Virus record (IMG/VR): IMGVR_UViG_3300045988_004318
Direction: 5' to 3' (one strand)
Source of the DNA: a virus
Length of the DNA stretch: 5,757 bases
This document shows, piece by piece, positions 1-5,757 of the stretch. Every line of letters begins with the position of its first letter. Position 1 is the first letter of the stretch. The notes under the pieces are model-generated. The model was given only the letters and a program-made list of their open reading frames with translations. It did no database searches and was not told the origin of the DNA. The position numbers and the translations under genes are program-made.

Positions 1-39
1 AAAAAAAAAATAAAACAAGGTGGAATTTTGTCCACCTTG
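1..39 (-). terminator. Rho-independent terminator (duplicate copy at 5703..5741)
   Basis: Minus strand reads CAAGGTGGA-caaaat-TCCACCTTG, a perfect 9-bp stem (31..39 pairs with 16..24) with a 6-nt loop. It is followed by TTTTATTTTTTTTTT. It lies 11 nt downstream of the stop codon at 50..52. Confidence 0.8.
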
Positions 40-55
40 CTGATTTTAGTTATTT
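1..55. repeat. Terminal direct repeat, copy A; circularisation overlap of a 5,702-nt circular genome
   Basis: Bases 1..55 (aaaaaaaaaataaaacaaggtggaattttgtccaccttgctgattttagttattt) match 5703..5757 base for base. The match runs to the last base of the window. Confidence 0.95.
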
Positions 56-205
56 GTTTTCGTATTCTTTGAGTTTTTCACAGATTGCATCTGTCCATTC
101 ATCATCCATGTTGTATTCTTTTTTCAGCTCGTCTCTGTCTTTGCTTCTCCAACCGCCGTCATATAATGCTGCTGCGCTTGCTTCTACTTCTTCATTGAAA
201 AACAT
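50..205 (-). CDS. Hypothetical small acidic protein, 51 aa (MFFNEEVEASAAALYDGGWRSKDRDELKKEYNMDDEWTDAICEKLKEYENK)
   Basis: ATG at 205..203 is preceded by AAGGAGA (217..211) with a 5-nt spacer. The ORF-track start at 256 is a GTG inside the -10 box of the upstream promoter, so it was trimmed. Composition is 15 D/E versus 8 K/R. I recognise no family. Confidence 0.65.
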   Translation of the reverse strand: MFFNEEVEASAAALYDGGWRSKDRDELKKEYNMDDEWTDAICEKLKEYENK

Positions 206-225
206 ATTGATCTCCTTTCGGTTGT

Positions 226-257
226 GTGTGTTCCTTTCTACACCTTTATTATACACC
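226..257 (-). promoter_or_regulatory. Candidate operator box overlapping the -10 and transcription start of promoter P1
   Basis: Minus strand reads GGTGTAtaataaaGGTGTAgaaaggaaCACAC. The same GGTGTA-N7-GGTGTA-N7/8-CACAC layout recurs at 1832..1863, with 17 of the first 19 nt identical. Confidence 0.35.
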
Positions 258-276
258 TAAAACATACACTTGTCAA
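248..276 (-). promoter_or_regulatory. Consensus sigma70/sigmaA-type promoter P1
   Basis: Minus strand has TTGACA (276..271), a 17-nt spacer (270..254) and TATAAT (253..248). An A-rich UP-like tract (aaaaacttaaaaaaatac) lies immediately upstream. The predicted start near 241 gives a leader of about 36 nt to the ATG at 205. Confidence 0.75.
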
Positions 277-295
277 GTATTTTTTTAAGTTTTTG

Positions 296-337
296 GCTGT
301 CCGATCGGCCGTGGTCGGCCGACGATGAGAGGACAGC
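296..337. repeat. GC-rich compound hairpin in the intergenic region between VP4 and the acidic ORF
   Basis: Outer stem gctgtcc (296..302) pairs with ggacagc (331..337). Inner stem tcggccg (305..311) pairs with cggccga (316..322) around a 4-nt loop tggt. It contains two CGGCCG palindromes 10 nt apart. Flanking sequence is AT-rich, and no U-tract follows on the minus strand. Confidence 0.8.
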
Positions 338-1831: not shown

Positions 1832-1863
1832 GGTGTGCGATTCTTACACCCATATTATACACC
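1832..1863 (-). promoter_or_regulatory. Candidate operator box overlapping the -10 and transcription start of promoter P2
   Basis: Minus strand reads GGTGTAtaatatgGGTGTAagaatcgCACACC. The second GGTGTA and the CACACC form an imperfect inverted repeat (5 of 6). The layout parallels 226..257. Confidence 0.35.
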
Positions 1864-1882
1864 TCCTTTTTGTGTCTGTCAA
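1854..1882 (-). promoter_or_regulatory. Consensus sigma70/sigmaA-type promoter P2
   Basis: Minus strand has TTGACA (1882..1877), a 17-nt spacer (1876..1860) and TATAAT (1859..1854). The -35 box abuts the VP2 stop codon (1885..1883). The promoter drives the 55-aa RHH-like ORF and, downstream of it, VP4. Confidence 0.75.
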
Positions 1883-2857
1883 TTACCATTTTCGCATTGC
1901 TTTTCCGAGACCGTACAGGGCTGCACCTGCTGCTTTTGTTTTCGCTTTGTTTCCAGCGTCTGCGATCTTTTTGCCTGCTTCTACGGTTGTCGGCGTTGTA
2001 GTCTGTCTTCCAGACTGTTCGTTGTTGTAGGTGTTGTTTGCGGTCTGTGCAATGTTTCCAACTGTTTTTGCGCTGCTTGAACCGATGTTTTGCATGATGC
2101 TCTGCATGTAACTGGCTTCTTCCCAGTTTTTGGTTTCTTTTGCTGTGTTGATCGCCTGCATGGCGTTCTGCAGAAATTGCGCTGTGTTGTTTCCGTAGTC
2201 ATACATAGCTTGCATTGTGGCCGTGTGTGCTGCTGGAATTGCTGATGCTTGAGCGTGGCTAAACGTTGTGTTTCCTACAGCTGCCTGGCCTCCGCTGCCG
2301 GCTGACGCGCCGAATCCGTTGTATGCTGCCAGTGCCGGGTTTAGACCTGCTTTCTTTAGGTCTTCTACTCCTCTCTGGTAGGCTGTGCTGGACATCATCT
2401 GTTGCCAGTCTCGATTCTTTTGGCTCTCTTCCCGGTTAAATGCCATTGCTGAAGCTTGGCTCTGTGCTGTCAGCTCGTTTGCCCTGGCGTTTGACCATAG
2501 GTTCATCAGGTTTCCTAGTGCCCACTGTCCGCTCTGGAGGTTGTTTGCGGTTTGTGCCTGTCCGGCGTTAAAGTTGGCTGCTGCCCCTGAGTTGTTTCCC
2601 GTGATGCCCGTTAAAGCTTTTCCCAGGATATCAGATATTCCAGACGTGTTACCCTGCGTTACCTGTCCGCCTTGGGTTCCTGTTGCCTGGTTCATGTTTC
2701 CTGACATGGTCGTGTTTCCAACTTGTTGGTTCATGGTGTTTTGGTTCATTGCGCTGCTGTTCGACCCTTTCGAGTTGATATAGCTGCTTGCAACGTTTCC
2801 TAAGGCTCCTACCACGCTTGGCAGTAGCTGCAAAGCGATTGCTCCCCATCCTGCCAT
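1883..2857 (-). CDS. VP2: VP2 minor capsid / DNA pilot protein, 324 aa
   Basis: It sits immediately downstream of VP1, as in gokushoviruses. AAGGAGG (2870..2864) overlaps the VP1 stop and lies 6 nt before the ATG at 2857. The N-terminus is hydrophobic (MAGWGAIALQLLPSVVGALGNV). The body is low-complexity and rich in G/A/N/Q/S/T, typical of VP2. The call rests on position and composition rather than a sharp motif. Confidence 0.8.
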   Translation of the reverse strand: MAGWGAIALQLLPSVVGALGNVASSYINSKGSNSSAMNQNTMNQQVGNTTMSGNMNQATGTQGGQVTQGNTSGISDILGKALTGITGNNSGAAANFNAGQAQTANNLQSGQWALGNLMNLWSNARANELTAQSQASAMAFNREESQKNRDWQQMMSSTAYQRGVEDLKKAGLNPALAAYNGFGASAGSGGQAAVGNTTFSHAQASAIPAAHTATMQAMYDYGNNTAQFLQNAMQAINTAKETKNWEEASYMQSIMQNIGSSSAKTVGNIAQTANNTYNNEQSGRQTTTPTTVEAGKKIADAGNKAKTKAAGAALYGLGKAMRKW

Positions 2858-2868
2858 TTTGCACCTCC

Positions 2869-4506
2869 TTAGATCGTATCAAGGCCCGGTACGCTGTAGA
2901 TCGGCATGGGTCGTGTCCAGGTTTGGTCAAAGTAAAAATTGCAGATGAACTGATAGCTGTGGTTGGTGTCCTCAACTGCCAGCGTTCTGGCGATGTTTTC
3001 GGTACCTTCTTTGATCCAGTCGTTGGATAGTGTCGGTAGGCTTGTGTAATGATCTGCATAGTGCCATGCATCCAGGCTCTGAGCGTAGGTGCTGCGCATT
3101 TCGGATGTTACTATGTTTGTGCGGTACCTGTAATCGGCCCAGGCTTCTTGGTAGCCGAAAACTTCTTCATCCTGTGTGTTTCCCTGTGCATAGATTTCTT
3201 GATTCAACACTGGCTGCTCTCCCAAGTTTGCCAGCATTGGATCGTAGTAGCTGAATCGTGTGCTTCTCGTCCACAATCTGCCCAAACCCTGCTGATAGCT
3301 GTGATCTACTCGCACGCAGCACAGGCCCAGCACATAGCCGTGTTCTGTTGCGCTGTAGGTGCACATGTGTCTGGACATTGTTGTCATGCTGTAGGCTGCC
3401 GTGTTGCCCTGCGGACTGGTCGTGCTTGTGCTTGATGTTTGAACGACCTGGTTGATGTTGATTGGCATTCTGTAGCCGCCGATGTATTCGCTTCGGTCAA
3501 GTCGTGCGTCCGGTGAGGTTACACCCCAGGCCCCTTTCAGGATTTCTTTGTACCTGGTTCCAGTCCTGGCATCTCGCTCTAGGATGTGCTGTACTGCGAT
3601 GGAGTTTCGGAGTTCGTTGATGCTGATTCCTGATACAGCGGTAAGGTCGGCTTGCAGGTTGCCGGTGGCTACTTTCAGTACATTGCCTGTAGGTTCGCTG
3701 TATCCGGTAATTCTTGTTGCGATTGTATTTGGGTCATTTACAGCGTTTGAAATGTATGATGTTGCGTCATTGCTTGTCGTGTCCAGATAAATTACTTTAT
3801 CTGTTTTTTGTCCGTTTTCAGTCAGCCATACCGGTGCCAGGCCTGCCAGGCCGATTTCTACTCCCTGGCCTTTTTGCGGCTGCGGCAAACTGCTGGTGAA
3901 GTAGTCTTTGTGTTTGCAGACTTTGAGGATCCCCAGTCCTCTTTCTGGTTTTTCGATGTCTTTTAGGTTTTCTTTGTATTCGAGTGTTTCGTCTCCTGTG
4001 TAGACATCCACTGGCTGCTGAAGGTTTTCATCTCTGAACCACTCGTTCCAGATCTTCGCATAGGCATTGAACGGCATTCTGTTCACTTCAAGGTTGGGCA
4101 CTCCCGTTGGGATTCCCATGTAGTCTGCGATTGATCCGACTTCCCAGCCTGTTGTAGGAGGTGCTTTTGCCGTGGGTGTTGTGTATTCTACTGTTTCTGC
4201 CCAGAAGCTGCTGTCATTCTGGCCCATCATGTTTACAAAGTGGTTCCAGAGCAGGCGGCTCGGTACGAAGAAGAAGAAAATATCCATGTTACAGTTGTCC
4301 ATAACAGGATAAAGCGGAGTAGCCATGCGCACCAAACCGTTTACATCGATTTTGAAAGTATCGCCGGGAAGCACCTCGTCAACATAGATTGGCACCAGAT
4401 CGCCTTCGTTGAGTGTGGTCAGCAGTGAAAAATCTCTTTTGAATCGGCTTCTTCTGATTTCTGCGTGCGGCACTTGGGAATAGTGCTGTTCACTGTTTCT
4501 GTTCAT
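2869..4506 (-). CDS. VP1: VP1 major capsid protein (Microviridae F/VP1 family), 545 aa
   Basis: The N-terminus is canonical: RSRFKRDFSLLTTLNEGDLVPIYVDEVLPGDTF...MATPLYPVMDN...IFFFFVPSRLLW. Later blocks include INELRNSIAVQHILERDARTGTRYKEIL, and the C-terminus is YSVPGLDTI. GGAGG lies 8 nt before the ATG at 4506. Length fits gokushovirus VP1. Confidence 0.97.
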   Translation of the reverse strand: MNRNSEQHYSQVPHAEIRRSRFKRDFSLLTTLNEGDLVPIYVDEVLPGDTFKIDVNGLVRMATPLYPVMDNCNMDIFFFFVPSRLLWNHFVNMMGQNDSSFWAETVEYTTPTAKAPPTTGWEVGSIADYMGIPTGVPNLEVNRMPFNAYAKIWNEWFRDENLQQPVDVYTGDETLEYKENLKDIEKPERGLGILKVCKHKDYFTSSLPQPQKGQGVEIGLAGLAPVWLTENGQKTDKVIYLDTTSNDATSYISNAVNDPNTIATRITGYSEPTGNVLKVATGNLQADLTAVSGISINELRNSIAVQHILERDARTGTRYKEILKGAWGVTSPDARLDRSEYIGGYRMPININQVVQTSSTSTTSPQGNTAAYSMTTMSRHMCTYSATEHGYVLGLCCVRVDHSYQQGLGRLWTRSTRFSYYDPMLANLGEQPVLNQEIYAQGNTQDEEVFGYQEAWADYRYRTNIVTSEMRSTYAQSLDAWHYADHYTSLPTLSNDWIKEGTENIARTLAVEDTNHSYQFICNFYFDQTWTRPMPIYSVPGLDTI

Positions 4507-4509
4507 GCT

Positions 4510-4992
4510 TTATTCCTCCTTTTTTGGTGATTCTGCTGTGTCTGGCTGTTGTACTGCAGAATTGTCTTTCGGCATAATGCCCATTTTTTCAATCCACTCC
4601 GGTTCTCCTGCGGTTGCTGCCCAGGCATTGAAGTTGTTCCCGAACCTGTTTCGGATTTCCAGTGGCAGCGTTTCGAACTTCTCTTTCTGCTCGTTCATCA
4701 TGTTTCGCCATTCGATGTAGTTTGCAGGCAGCTTGCTGGTGTCGATGTACCAGCCAGGATTAGCCATGACCGTGGTGTCGCCTGCTGCATACCTTGCAAG
4801 GATGCTCATGGGGTCTACTTCGTCTTTGTAGCTCTGGATTTTTTCATACGTGTTGATCTCTCCGACCTGTTCAAGATAAGGTCTGCCGTCTTTATCGTAC
4901 CGCTCTTTGTATTGCGGCTCCAGAATATTGCCCGGCTCGTTTGGCTTCCTTTTCGGTTTTTCATCTCCATAGGGTGTAAAGATTTTAACCAT
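4510..4992 (-). CDS. VP3: VP3 internal scaffolding protein, 160 aa
   Basis: It lies directly upstream of VP1. Motifs resemble gokushovirus VP3: IQSYKDEVDPMSILARYAAGD, and LPANYIEWRNMMNEQKEKFETLPLEIRNRFGNNFNAW. GGAGG lies 9 nt before the ATG at 4992. The start overlaps the preceding ORF by 8 nt. Confidence 0.85.
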   Translation of the reverse strand: MVKIFTPYGDEKPKRKPNEPGNILEPQYKERYDKDGRPYLEQVGEINTYEKIQSYKDEVDPMSILARYAAGDTTVMANPGWYIDTSKLPANYIEWRNMMNEQKEKFETLPLEIRNRFGNNFNAWAATAGEPEWIEKMGIMPKDNSAVQQPDTAESPKKEE

Positions 4993-5242
4993 CCTTTTTT
5001 TCCTCCATGCTCTTTTTCACCTGTTCGATGTTCCATTCCAGCTCCGGCATACACGGTGCGATCATGCCGGTTTCGGTGTCGTACTGCCCCAGATGATAGA
5101 CCCGCTTATCCTCGCAGTCGCTTTTTTCCATCTCTTGGGTCATCCACTTGAAGGTTCTTTCCTTAACAATCGGGTTGATGACCATGATGTTGCCAAAGGT
5201 TCCTGCCAGCTCGTCCTTGATAGCATAAAGTTCAAAAGTCAT
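4985..5242 (-). CDS. VP5-like small nonstructural protein, 85 aa (MTFELYAIKDELAGTFGN...LGQYDTETGMI...)
   Basis: The pattern M.F.LY.IKD...G.F......R.F......LG.YD..TG.I resembles my recollection of gokushovirus ORF5/VP5 proteins, as do its size and its position upstream of VP3. Start was trimmed to the ATG at 5242..5240, with GGAGG 9 nt upstream. The ORF-track start at 5278 has no SD. Confidence 0.6.
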   Translation of the reverse strand: MTFELYAIKDELAGTFGNIMVINPIVKERTFKWMTQEMEKSDCEDKRVYHLGQYDTETGMIAPCMPELEWNIEQVKKSMEEKKDG

Positions 5243-5432
5243 TGTTGTTATCCTCCATAACCTCGTTGATGATATCATTTTTGTGATATTTCATCCCATA
5301 TTCGATTGCTTTTCGTGTCGCTGCCGGCACGCTGCATCCCAGTTCTTCTGCCAGATCATCAATATCGGCTGCTGTGTCGTACCTCAGTCTCACTGTCAGT
5401 GTGCAGCATGCCATGTTCTTGATGCTCTTCAC
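5232..5432 (-). CDS. Second ribbon-helix-helix-like small protein, 66 aa (from the GTG) or 60 aa (from the ATG at 5414)
   Basis: The layout is strand-like TLTVRLR, helix TAADIDDLAEELG, then helix SVPAATRKAIEYGMKY, which fits an RHH fold. The GTG at 5432..5430 overlaps the upstream TGA (GTGA) and has GGGGAGGG 9 nt upstream. The C-terminal tail is acidic. Confidence 0.55.
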   Translation of the reverse strand: MKSIKNMACCTLTVRLRYDTAADIDDLAEELGCSVPAATRKAIEYGMKYHKNDIINEVMEDNNNDF

Positions 5433-5548
5433 AGTCGAATCCCTCCCCGGCTCGGTTTCGGATTGACGTTGATCTTTTTGGTTTTCTTTGCCGTGTTGGT
5501 GAAAACCTTTTTGTCAGTCTTCGGTTTTACAGTGCTCCGATGTGCCAT
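5429..5548 (-). CDS. Small basic DNA-binding/packaging peptide (J / ORF8-like), 39 aa (MAHRSTVKPKTDKKVFTNTAKKTKKINVNPKPSRGGIRL)
   Basis: It is highly basic and ends in RGGIRL. I recall this resembling gokushovirus/SpV4 ORF8-type peptides that end RGG.R[LF]. AAGGAGG lies 7 nt before the ATG at 5548. The start overlaps the upstream stop as TAATG. Confidence 0.7.
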   Translation of the reverse strand: MAHRSTVKPKTDKKVFTNTAKKTKKINVNPKPSRGGIRL

Positions 5549-5655
5549 TACTCTTCCTCCTTGTCGAGTTCCAGTGCGTGGTAAATTTTATCCAGCATGT
5601 GCAGGATTTTCTTCAGGTGTCGGAAAATTGCGTTGATGTCTTGTAAAGTTACCAT
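5548..5655 (-). CDS. Hypothetical 35-aa protein (MVTLQDINAIFRHLKKILHMLDKIYHALELDKEEE), predicted amphipathic helix
   Basis: GGAGG lies 9 nt before the ATG at 5655..5653. The TAA stop overlaps the next ATG, suggesting translational coupling. I/L spacing is heptad-like. The ORF is very short, so coding status is uncertain. Confidence 0.4.
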   Translation of the reverse strand: MVTLQDINAIFRHLKKILHMLDKIYHALELDKEEE

Positions 5656-5702
5656 TTTTTTCAGCCTCCTTTTGGTAATTTTGTTTATATTCCCATTCTA
5701 TC

Positions 5703-5757
5703 AAAAAAAAAATAAAACAAGGTGGAATTTTGTCCACCTTGCTGATTTTAGTTATTT
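5703..5757. repeat. Terminal direct repeat, copy B; duplicates the terminator and the last codons of the 51-aa ORF
   Basis: Identical to 1..55. Offset is 5702 nt. Confidence 0.95.

Follow-up and report, generated by a model that had tools for sequence, protein, structure and literature searches.

Evidence for a fixed expression slot with exchangeable accessory genes in a human-gut gokushovirus and for a candidate anti-CRISPR-type cargo protein

In tailed phages, a gene enclosed by its own promoter and terminator is known as a moron, the concept of Juhala and Hendrix. Here we analyze a comparable unit in the IMG/VR virus record IMGVR_UViG_3300045988_004318, a stretch of 5,757 nucleotides (nt) that we call the window, which holds the genome of a human-gut gokushovirus. 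The unit lies downstream of the replication gene (Rep, VP4) and encodes an acidic protein of 51 amino acids (aa). Microviruses have been described as having limited accessory repertoires and rare gene exchange (PMC9239249). The fast-exchanging, conflict-related gokushovirus locus that comes closest, as the work of Kirchberger et al. (2021) is represented in PMC9239249 and PMC10002423, is a hypervariable region with superinfection exclusion that lies inside VP2. The best functional parallel is the locus of AcrIC5 (PF22147; crystal structure 7YHR), a validated inhibitor of type I-C CRISPR systems, which is active against those of P. aeruginosa and Eggerthella lenta and has orthologs in Firmicutes and Actinobacteria (PMC7913775). 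AcrIC5 is highly acidic, blocks target DNA binding and is predicted to sit at the protospacer adjacent motif (PAM) site of Cas8c. Two anti-CRISPRs (Acrs) can also occur in one polypeptide, as in the natural fusion AcrIE4-F7 (PMC8887544).

Our analysis indicates that, in a clade of gokushoviruses from the human gut, this region is best read as a fixed slot from which accessory genes are expressed, its regulatory shell being conserved and its cargo swapped. Like a moron, the slot is an autonomous unit in which a strong promoter and a terminator enclose a non-core gene between conserved modules, and its cargo is shared horizontally with other phages. The G+C content of the cargo is 37.8% against 46.6% for the genome, but that of the conserved core gene orf55 is 35.7%. 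The slot differs from a moron in that the shell is a permanent part of the backbone and only the coding cargo, with about 10 alleles, is exchanged; moreover, it resides in a 5.7-kb single-stranded DNA (ssDNA) microvirus rather than in a tailed double-stranded DNA (dsDNA) phage, and its terminator probably serves the whole genome. The original prediction for this stretch had proposed a moron-like unit. Its own promoter, its terminator and its single non-core gene stand, on sequence grounds, whereas the shell was never absent in the roughly 45 contigs that we compared. The main feature, a conserved slot with exchanged cargo, had been missed.

The AcrIC5 locus resembles the slot in combining a small, highly acidic phage protein with a strong promoter. 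In addition, AcrIC5 itself occupies the identical slot in sibling genomes, and in tailed phages it adjoins, or is fused to, the domain that forms the 51-aa protein. The differences are that the 51-aa protein is not homologous to AcrIC5, that the cassette lacks an aca gene, and that inhibition by the 51-aa protein is our proposal. The fusions in tailed phages join two small inhibitor-like domains in one polypeptide, as AcrIE4-F7 does, although both halves of AcrIE4-F7 are proven Acrs, whereas in the fusions described below a proven family is represented by the C-terminal half alone. The hypervariable region, as described in the sources cited above, lies within the pilot protein gene and is therefore a different locus from the slot, which is a separate unit downstream of VP4 accepting whole exchangeable genes. 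In the open-access literature we found no report of a moron-like slot in gokushoviruses, of an anti-CRISPR in Microviridae, or of the LYDGGWR motif. Moron and acr loci are of a known kind; the novelty here is that, in an ssDNA phage, the shell is fixed and its contents can be exchanged, the cargo being a candidate new inhibitor family.

The slot was delineated in sequences of IMG/VR, GenBank and human-gut metagenomes, about 45 contigs that are in part redundant. IMG/VR and the metagenomes were scanned by promoter pattern; a shorter pattern matched unrelated large contigs by chance, and those were discarded. The promoter TTGACAAGTGTAT-N5-AGGTGTATAATAAAG is kept almost base for base in these contigs, whatever cargo follows. 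Downstream of VP4, the relatives conserve the boundary hairpin, the promoter, the leader ending in GGTGTAGAAAGGA and the terminator, while about 10 cargo types, most of them mutually without detectable similarity, lie between leader and terminator. An empty slot was found in none of the contigs. The leader is kept up to the point where the cargo sequences part, and backbone alignments begin at base 232, the promoter, when the cargo differs and at base 1 when it is the same. Two genomes (L097 and L061) share ~91% genome-wide identity with the window, but their cargo gene has had its 5′ two-thirds replaced; the breakpoints are sharp, one just past the conserved leader and the other within the gene, and L061 is a mosaic with the window's 3′ third of the gene. 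Two GenBank entries, KX513873 and MG945569, carry the same shell around unrelated open reading frames (ORFs) of 60 and 64 aa.

The commonest cargo (type 1) belongs to the family of the 51-aa protein, and two further types are versions of it: a colinear, charge-reversed version with an isoelectric point (pI) of 8.9 and ELHKRHCK in place of ALYDGGWR (type 2), and longer versions of 72–84 aa that keep the ALYDGGWR motif (type 3). Type 4 is an AcrIC5-type protein (L098, L103, L215 and L225), and types 5–10 are six more unrelated small proteins. Colinear homologs with a basic ELHKRHCK-type motif (pI 7.9–8.9) were noted in L061/L096/L228, L097/L226, L211 and L213. The type 9 cargo, in L196, is a Cys-rich protein of 55 aa (…YRYEHCDGACEKCPCHD…). 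Homologs 48% identical to it lie 66 nt upstream of a homolog of the 51-aa protein in tailed phages of 55–60 kb (L064, L067 5743-5925), and the slot therefore samples neighboring genes of tailed-phage islands. In tailed phages, three slot cargo types are neighbors or fusion partners. In L025 (3489-3860) and L027, two microviruses that are more distant, a homolog of the 51-aa protein is followed by a Peptidase_M15_3 gene (E 2e-24) instead of the terminator, and its promoter is a different one.

The elements of the shell in the window are those predicted for a cassette that is autonomous, accessory and outside the core: relatives retain its promoter, leader and terminator, and covariation is seen in the terminator stem (Table 1). 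The perfect promoter claimed for the gene is present, with 12 of 12 consensus matches, but it is not unique, since a second perfect one precedes orf55 and Rep; the exact TTGACA-17-TATAAT pattern occurs twice in the window versus 0 times in 200 dinucleotide shuffles. The anticipated A-rich tract, which resembles an upstream promoter (UP) element and is A-rich in most relatives, is likewise present and may have UP-element activity. So is the gene's own strong ribosome-binding site, a Shine–Dalgarno (SD) sequence whose place is taken in relatives by GGAGG, AGGAG or AAGGA. Transcription would start from these signals.

The terminator hairpin, followed by a 15-nt T-rich run, folds at −16.4 kcal/mol (z = −4.8) and is the sole terminator-like site on the coding strand. 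In 14 relatives and variants, 96% of the cells of its stem are paired and three pairs are changed on both sides; the structure is conserved in relatives, and the sequence is almost identical in most (CGTGAGGTTGACGAAAATCAGCCTTGCG, then the T-run). Because the coding strand of the circle has no other terminator, it most likely ends all transcripts, and it probably serves the whole genome, not the cassette alone. The view that it is the only canonical terminator hence survives for the coding strand, but the element is probably not dedicated to this gene. Between the Rep stop (401) and the cassette we found no canonical terminator, only a conserved hairpin without a T-run, which leaves insulation from the replication module unsupported. 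The idea of a cassette insulated from both the replication and the structural modules is not supported, with no terminator upstream and a downstream terminator that is probably common to the whole genome.

The conserved hairpin marks the upstream edge of the slot. It is found in relatives and folds at −24.7 kcal/mol (z = −4.7); its outer stem is 98% paired across relatives, both sides having changed at five of the seven pairs, and a TTTTCAT-like internal loop is kept in many of them. The hairpin may act as an RNA element, or as a site of origin or priming for the ssDNA genome.

The 51-aa ORF is a real gene under purifying selection: among 16 microvirus copies (105 pairwise comparisons), the median ratio of nonsynonymous to synonymous substitution rates (dN/dS) is 0.21, at a mean dS of 0.75. 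Two other frames were rejected. An antisense ORF (54..260, plus strand) is interrupted by stop codons in relatives, and a 68-aa version started by GTG (256..50) would begin inside the promoter and leader, while the SD sequence precedes the ATG at 205. With 15 D+E versus 8 K+R, the product has a net charge of −7 and a pI of 4.37, in agreement with the charge of about −7 given before. The AlphaFold2 (AF2) model has a predicted local distance difference test (pLDDT) score of 87.7 and contains helices at residues 2-16, 21-31 and 35-50. The profile searches and structure prediction that had been recommended gave a confident three-helix model and no annotated relative: there was no match in Pfam, PHROGs or the PDB, the last searched by sequence and with Foldseek, and the matches in BFVD were only uncharacterised Siphoviridae proteins. 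The protein does not match the PF22147 AcrIC5 profile and has no homology to Ocr or ArdA in Pfam or the PDB; as regards the DNA-mimic reading raised earlier, the trait in evidence is bulk acidity. The statement that it matches no core microvirus protein is borne out by the PHROG and Pfam searches, which showed no significant similarity to VP1–VP5 or VP8; the core genes all lie elsewhere in the window.

The original prediction had raised the question of homologs in other phages, and these proved numerous. A first search yielded 43 homologous clusters, of which ~20 are on microvirus contigs of 5–6 kb (70–98% identity) and another ~20 are 49-aa proteins on contigs of 8–57 kb (57–69% identity). 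A profile search of 1.84 billion representatives returned 553 clusters at E ≤ 0.001, including 204 at ≤ 1e-10, mostly from tailed phages of Gram-positive hosts. The unit of the family is a domain of ~46 aa with the signature AAALYDGGWR..D...L..EY.L...EAD.ICE.L..YE (also written AAALYDGGWR...EY.L...EAD.ICEKL.EYE), which we refer to as the ALYDGGWR domain. It is found alone, in tandem, or fused to other regions, and all sources annotate the family as hypothetical protein. The 93 stand-alone members of up to 65 aa are all acidic, with pI 4.05–5.27 and a median net charge of −9. Because the stand-alone form is dominant and the gene is under purifying selection, the domain must work alone. Tandem duplications and one fusion to a GGACT/AIG2-like enzyme domain (E 8.5e-9) were seen among P0044, P0045, P0052 and P0156. 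A 106-aa neighbor in L109 (7165-7485) is seemingly a distant paralog, with ELYAEGKR instead of ALYDGGWR.

The tailed-phage homologs are encoded on contigs of 25–115 kb together with Glyco_hydro_25, CHAP or Peptidase_M15_3 endolysins, Sipho_Gp157, ERF and SSB, and this endolysin and other gene content points to Gram-positive hosts. Four matches are in metagenome-assembled genomes (MAGs) of Clostridia, Gallacutalibacter and Pradoshia and in one 5.5-kb contig binned as Babeliales. The last (L007, 5465 bp) encodes a 113-aa protein with the ALYDGGWR domain at its N-terminus; judging by its size, the contig is more likely a small phage, or a fragment, that was placed in the MAG by binning than chromosome. 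In the tailed phages, the homologs sit in islands of small genes between the lysis genes and CI/Cro/integrase, often co-oriented with integrase and repressor; this is a typical accessory position. Pfam scans of the neighbors in three other tailed-phage clades detected only choline-binding repeats, in L063, and a crude clustering of the neighboring ORFs was too noisy for use.

The link to AcrIC5 appears at several levels. In the microvirus slot, the type 4 cargo matches PF22147 over the full profile with 91.9 bits (cut-off 27; E 2.7e-26) and aligns to 7YHR (E 1.1e-11). In the tailed-phage fragment L114, a gene of the AcrIC5 family (42.4 bits) ends 26 nt before a homolog 63% identical to the 51-aa protein. 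A survey of 80 AcrIC5 loci from IMG/VR uncovered a 112-aa protein (L123, ORF 2842-3180) in which the ALYDGGWR domain is followed by AcrIC5 (80.5 bits); this gene has its own TTGCAA-17-TATAAT promoter and follows a lysin-like gene. Among the 148 best representative clusters of the family, the same order, with the ALYDGGWR domain at the N-terminus and AcrIC5 at the C-terminus, occurs in six (P0059, P0074, P0127, P0151, P0167 and P0184), which makes at least seven fusion proteins counting that of L123. AcrIC5 is the only recurrent Pfam fusion partner in these 148 clusters, apart from two sub-threshold WXG100 matches; fusions to HTH_3, RHH_1 and GGACT occur singly. The AF2 model of P0074 (pLDDT 91) matches 7YHR in its C-terminal half, with a probability of 1.00, 48% identity and a root-mean-square deviation of 1.4 Å. 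As 7YHR could be detected with this model, the negative fold search of the ALYDGGWR domain alone is meaningful.

Since a known inhibitor is among the cargos, since the ALYDGGWR domain is repeatedly joined to AcrIC5, and since there is a precedent for Acr–Acr fusion, inhibition of host defense appears the most likely role of the 51-aa protein. We therefore favor, with moderate confidence, the reading of the region as a slot for immune-inhibitor genes that holds a candidate new anti-CRISPR-type protein. In this scheme, the backbone would supply the boundary hairpin, the consensus promoter with its A-rich tract, a short leader, a strong ribosome-binding site and the sole intrinsic terminator, and recombination would replace the cargo gene, with crossovers in the conserved flanks and sometimes inside the gene. 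The cargos would be drawn from the pool of small accessory genes located between the lysis genes and the lysogeny or early-switch region in tailed phages of Gram-positive gut bacteria. Once the incoming single strand has become double-stranded DNA, the three-helix protein would be made in quantity and may inhibit a host immune system, most likely the surveillance complex of type I CRISPR-Cas, by binding the surface of a Cas protein, the mode of action proposed for the acidic AcrIC5 at the DNA/PAM-binding site of Cas8c. The uniform acidity of the family fits that of small acidic Acrs. Hundreds of gut Microviridae genomes are targeted by CRISPR (PMC8530359), and a selective pressure for such inhibitors therefore exists.

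Several points weigh against this reading. In Pfam and the PDB, the ALYDGGWR domain resembles no known Acr in sequence or fold, AcrIC5 included, and the cassette contains no aca-type regulator gene. The AcrIC5 link consists of one adjacency, about seven fusion clusters and three to four microvirus genomes among hundreds of members. Most tailed-phage neighbors are unannotated, so that the contexts are largely uninformative, and function assigned through guilt by association often proves wrong; a domain fused to an Acr might also be a helper or have a regulatory role. The charge-reversed variant (pI 8.9), found in a near-identical backbone, would not be expected under a simple "acidic mimic" model. 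The earlier guess at an anti-defense protein is thus strengthened by AcrIC5 in the same slot of sibling genomes and by adjacency and fusion in tailed phages, while the activity itself is proposed from these associations.

Another possibility, which we regard as rather unlikely, is that the gene is accessory without being an immune inhibitor. The protein would then act on another host or phage target, in host takeover, superinfection exclusion or enzyme modulation, and the AcrIC5 link would reflect shared residence in the islands. Such a role would be in line with the roughly eight other slot cargo types of no known function, several of them basic (pI 8.9–9.5), with the mixture of many functions in tailed-phage islands, and with the family member fused to a GGACT/AIG2 enzyme domain; moreover, the sole superinfection-exclusion determinant described in gokushoviruses is at a different locus, inside VP2. 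However, co-residence hardly explains an in-frame fusion that recurs in a fixed order in six to seven separate clusters, or the fact that AcrIC5 is the only recurrent fused Pfam domain.

In AcrIIA1, an N-terminal helix-turn-helix (HTH) domain represses the protein's own operon. By analogy, the ALYDGGWR domain, a three-helix bundle of ~46 aa that is always N-terminal in the Acr fusions, might be an Aca-like module that binds DNA or a partner and controls the strong promoter, which carries operator-like repeats. Weak winged-helix matches in 10 of 40 members would point in the same direction, but these are all sub-threshold (best E 0.0096, under the gathering score), and no HTH or ribbon-helix-helix (RHH) DNA-binding domain reached threshold. 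The pI range of the 93 stand-alone members is unusual for DNA binders, and in this genome the protein would regulate only itself. Furthermore, the promoter and its GGTGTA repeats are the same with any cargo, AcrIC5 included, so that any regulator must come from a backbone gene, and a regulatory role of the cargo is unlikely. Together, the uniform acidity and the cargo-independent repeats argue against an Aca-like role, which we consider improbable.

Still less probable is a core life-cycle factor, a helper of lysis, assembly or replication, that only seems accessory. Gokushovirus lysis genes are, to our knowledge, poorly known; the gene follows Rep, the slot is never empty, and a Peptidase_M15_3 gene comes next in L025 and L027. 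On the other hand, siblings with the same core genes carry unrelated genes in its place, the protein has no hydrophobic segment and no similarity to VP1–VP5 or VP8, and the family abounds in tailed phages that have their own holin–endolysin systems, where it occupies non-structural positions. A chance ORF between real signals, without a protein product, is hardly credible: although the frame is very short and is unannotated in most GenBank relatives, this explanation is refuted by the dN/dS ratio and the 553 homologous clusters, which include multi-domain proteins, and it is at odds with the confident fold and the conserved SD sequence.

We put forward tentatively, as a real possibility, that the ALYDGGWR domain is a widespread new anti-CRISPR or anti-defense family of at least 550 clusters and that the region is the first plug-in anti-defense slot in Microviridae, its cargo exchanged with tailed dsDNA phages that share Gram-positive gut hosts. 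Such a finding would contradict the view of microviruses, which are among the smallest and most abundant gut phages, as genetically isolated and almost without accessory genes. With ~10 interchangeable cargos, several of them common to tailed phages, even a 5.7-kb genome would reserve ~5% of its length for conflict-type genes. The cargos of the slot could serve as a natural catalog of candidates for inhibiting the immune systems of Gram-positive gut bacteria, each with AcrIC5 as a positive control in the same frame. The family, which is large and has no name, can be tested directly as a new Acr; small Acrs have a use as switches in CRISPR tools. The shell itself (promoter, leader and terminator; ~120 nt) could become a compact expression cassette for engineered microviruses.

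The two perfect promoters have AGGTGTATAATA..GGTGTA in common. The three (A/G)GTGTA repeats of the cassette promoter cross its spacer, the −10 hexamer and the start region (AAGTGTAtgttttAGGTGTAtaataaAGGTGTA), and may be an operator shared with the second promoter, in keeping with a putative regulatory role. In one relative (L022), the spacers of both promoters are altered jointly, to TACATCAAAT, and this points to a single operator common to the two and to a single regulator that the backbone encodes. In another (L021, upstream of 5347), the −10 hexamer is missing, which reads as a deletion between two AGGTGTA repeats; either an assembly error or a natural promoter-down variant may account for it. 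The gene behind the second promoter, orf55, was considered as a second variable slot, which is ruled out by its conservation in all relatives (40–96% identity); it is therefore a core gene. Its product is RHH-like by eye and has no Pfam match. We regard orf55 as a candidate repressor of both promoters.

Table 1. Positions of the slot elements and other features in the 5,757-nt window
Feature	Position	Strand	Remarks
Intrinsic terminator	41..1	minus	11-bp stem (41..14), 6-nt loop, then TTTTATTTTTTTTTT (13..1); downstream edge of slot
Cargo gene, 51 aa	205..50	minus	MFFNEEVEASAAALYDGGWRSKDRDELKKEYNMDDEWTDAICEKLKEYENK; coding 205..53, stop 52..50
SD sequence	218..211	minus	AAAGGAGA; 5 nt before ATG at 205
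Three direct (A/G)GTGTA repeats	239..271	minus	13-nt spacing
Promoter, sigma-70/sigma-A type	276..248	minus	TTGACA (276..271), 17 nt, TATAAT (253..248)
A-rich UP-like tract	296..277	minus	CCAAAAACTTAAAAAAATAC; immediately 5′ of −35 hexamer
Boundary stem-loop	337..296	minus	between Rep (VP4) stop and cassette promoter; 7-bp outer stem, inner G+C-rich stem, no T-run
Rep/VP4	401-1540	minus	stop at 401; likely true start ATG at 1504
orf55, 55 aa	1645-1812	minus	MRSQMAKRMNINLTQKQIEEIEYIK...
Second perfect promoter	1882..1854	minus	TTGACA-17-TATAAT; before orf55 and Rep
VP2 pilot protein	1883-2857	minus	
VP1 major capsid	2869-4506	minus	PF02305, E 1e-163
VP3 scaffold	4510-4992	minus	Chlamy_scaf
ORF5-like	4985-5278	minus	
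Terminal overlap	5703..5757	minus	100% identical 55-nt direct repeat of 1-55, spacing 5702; ORF end, stop and terminator, not a second element

Bases 1-55 of the window are identical to 5703-5757, which identifies a circular assembly with an overlap; the circular genome measures 5,702 bp after its removal, and the terminator appears two times in the window because of this repeat. All genes of the window are on the minus strand, and several further small ORFs accompany the core genes. The closest records are Microviridae from human gut and pig feces, one IMG/VR contig (L011) being ~95% identical, and the metagenome contigs that share the window's promoter are almost all labeled human gut metagenome.

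Some minor features of the backbone were also noted. In VP1, a stretch of ~250 nt (3621-3869) cannot be aligned even to genomes that are 91–95% identical elsewhere, in agreement with the hypervariable surface loop known from gokushovirus capsids. Between orf55 and the probable start of Rep lies a perfect 16-bp inverted repeat with a 9-nt loop (1529-1569; −26.1 kcal/mol, z = −5.5), with no T-run after it, which might serve in attenuation or translational control, or as a site related to Rep. Straight after the T-run of the terminator, an extended −10-like motif, TGATAGAAT (5695-5703, minus strand; TGGTAAAAT in relatives), precedes a strong SD sequence and orf35 (5655..5548), the first gene of the structural block, and is probably the promoter of the structural operon.

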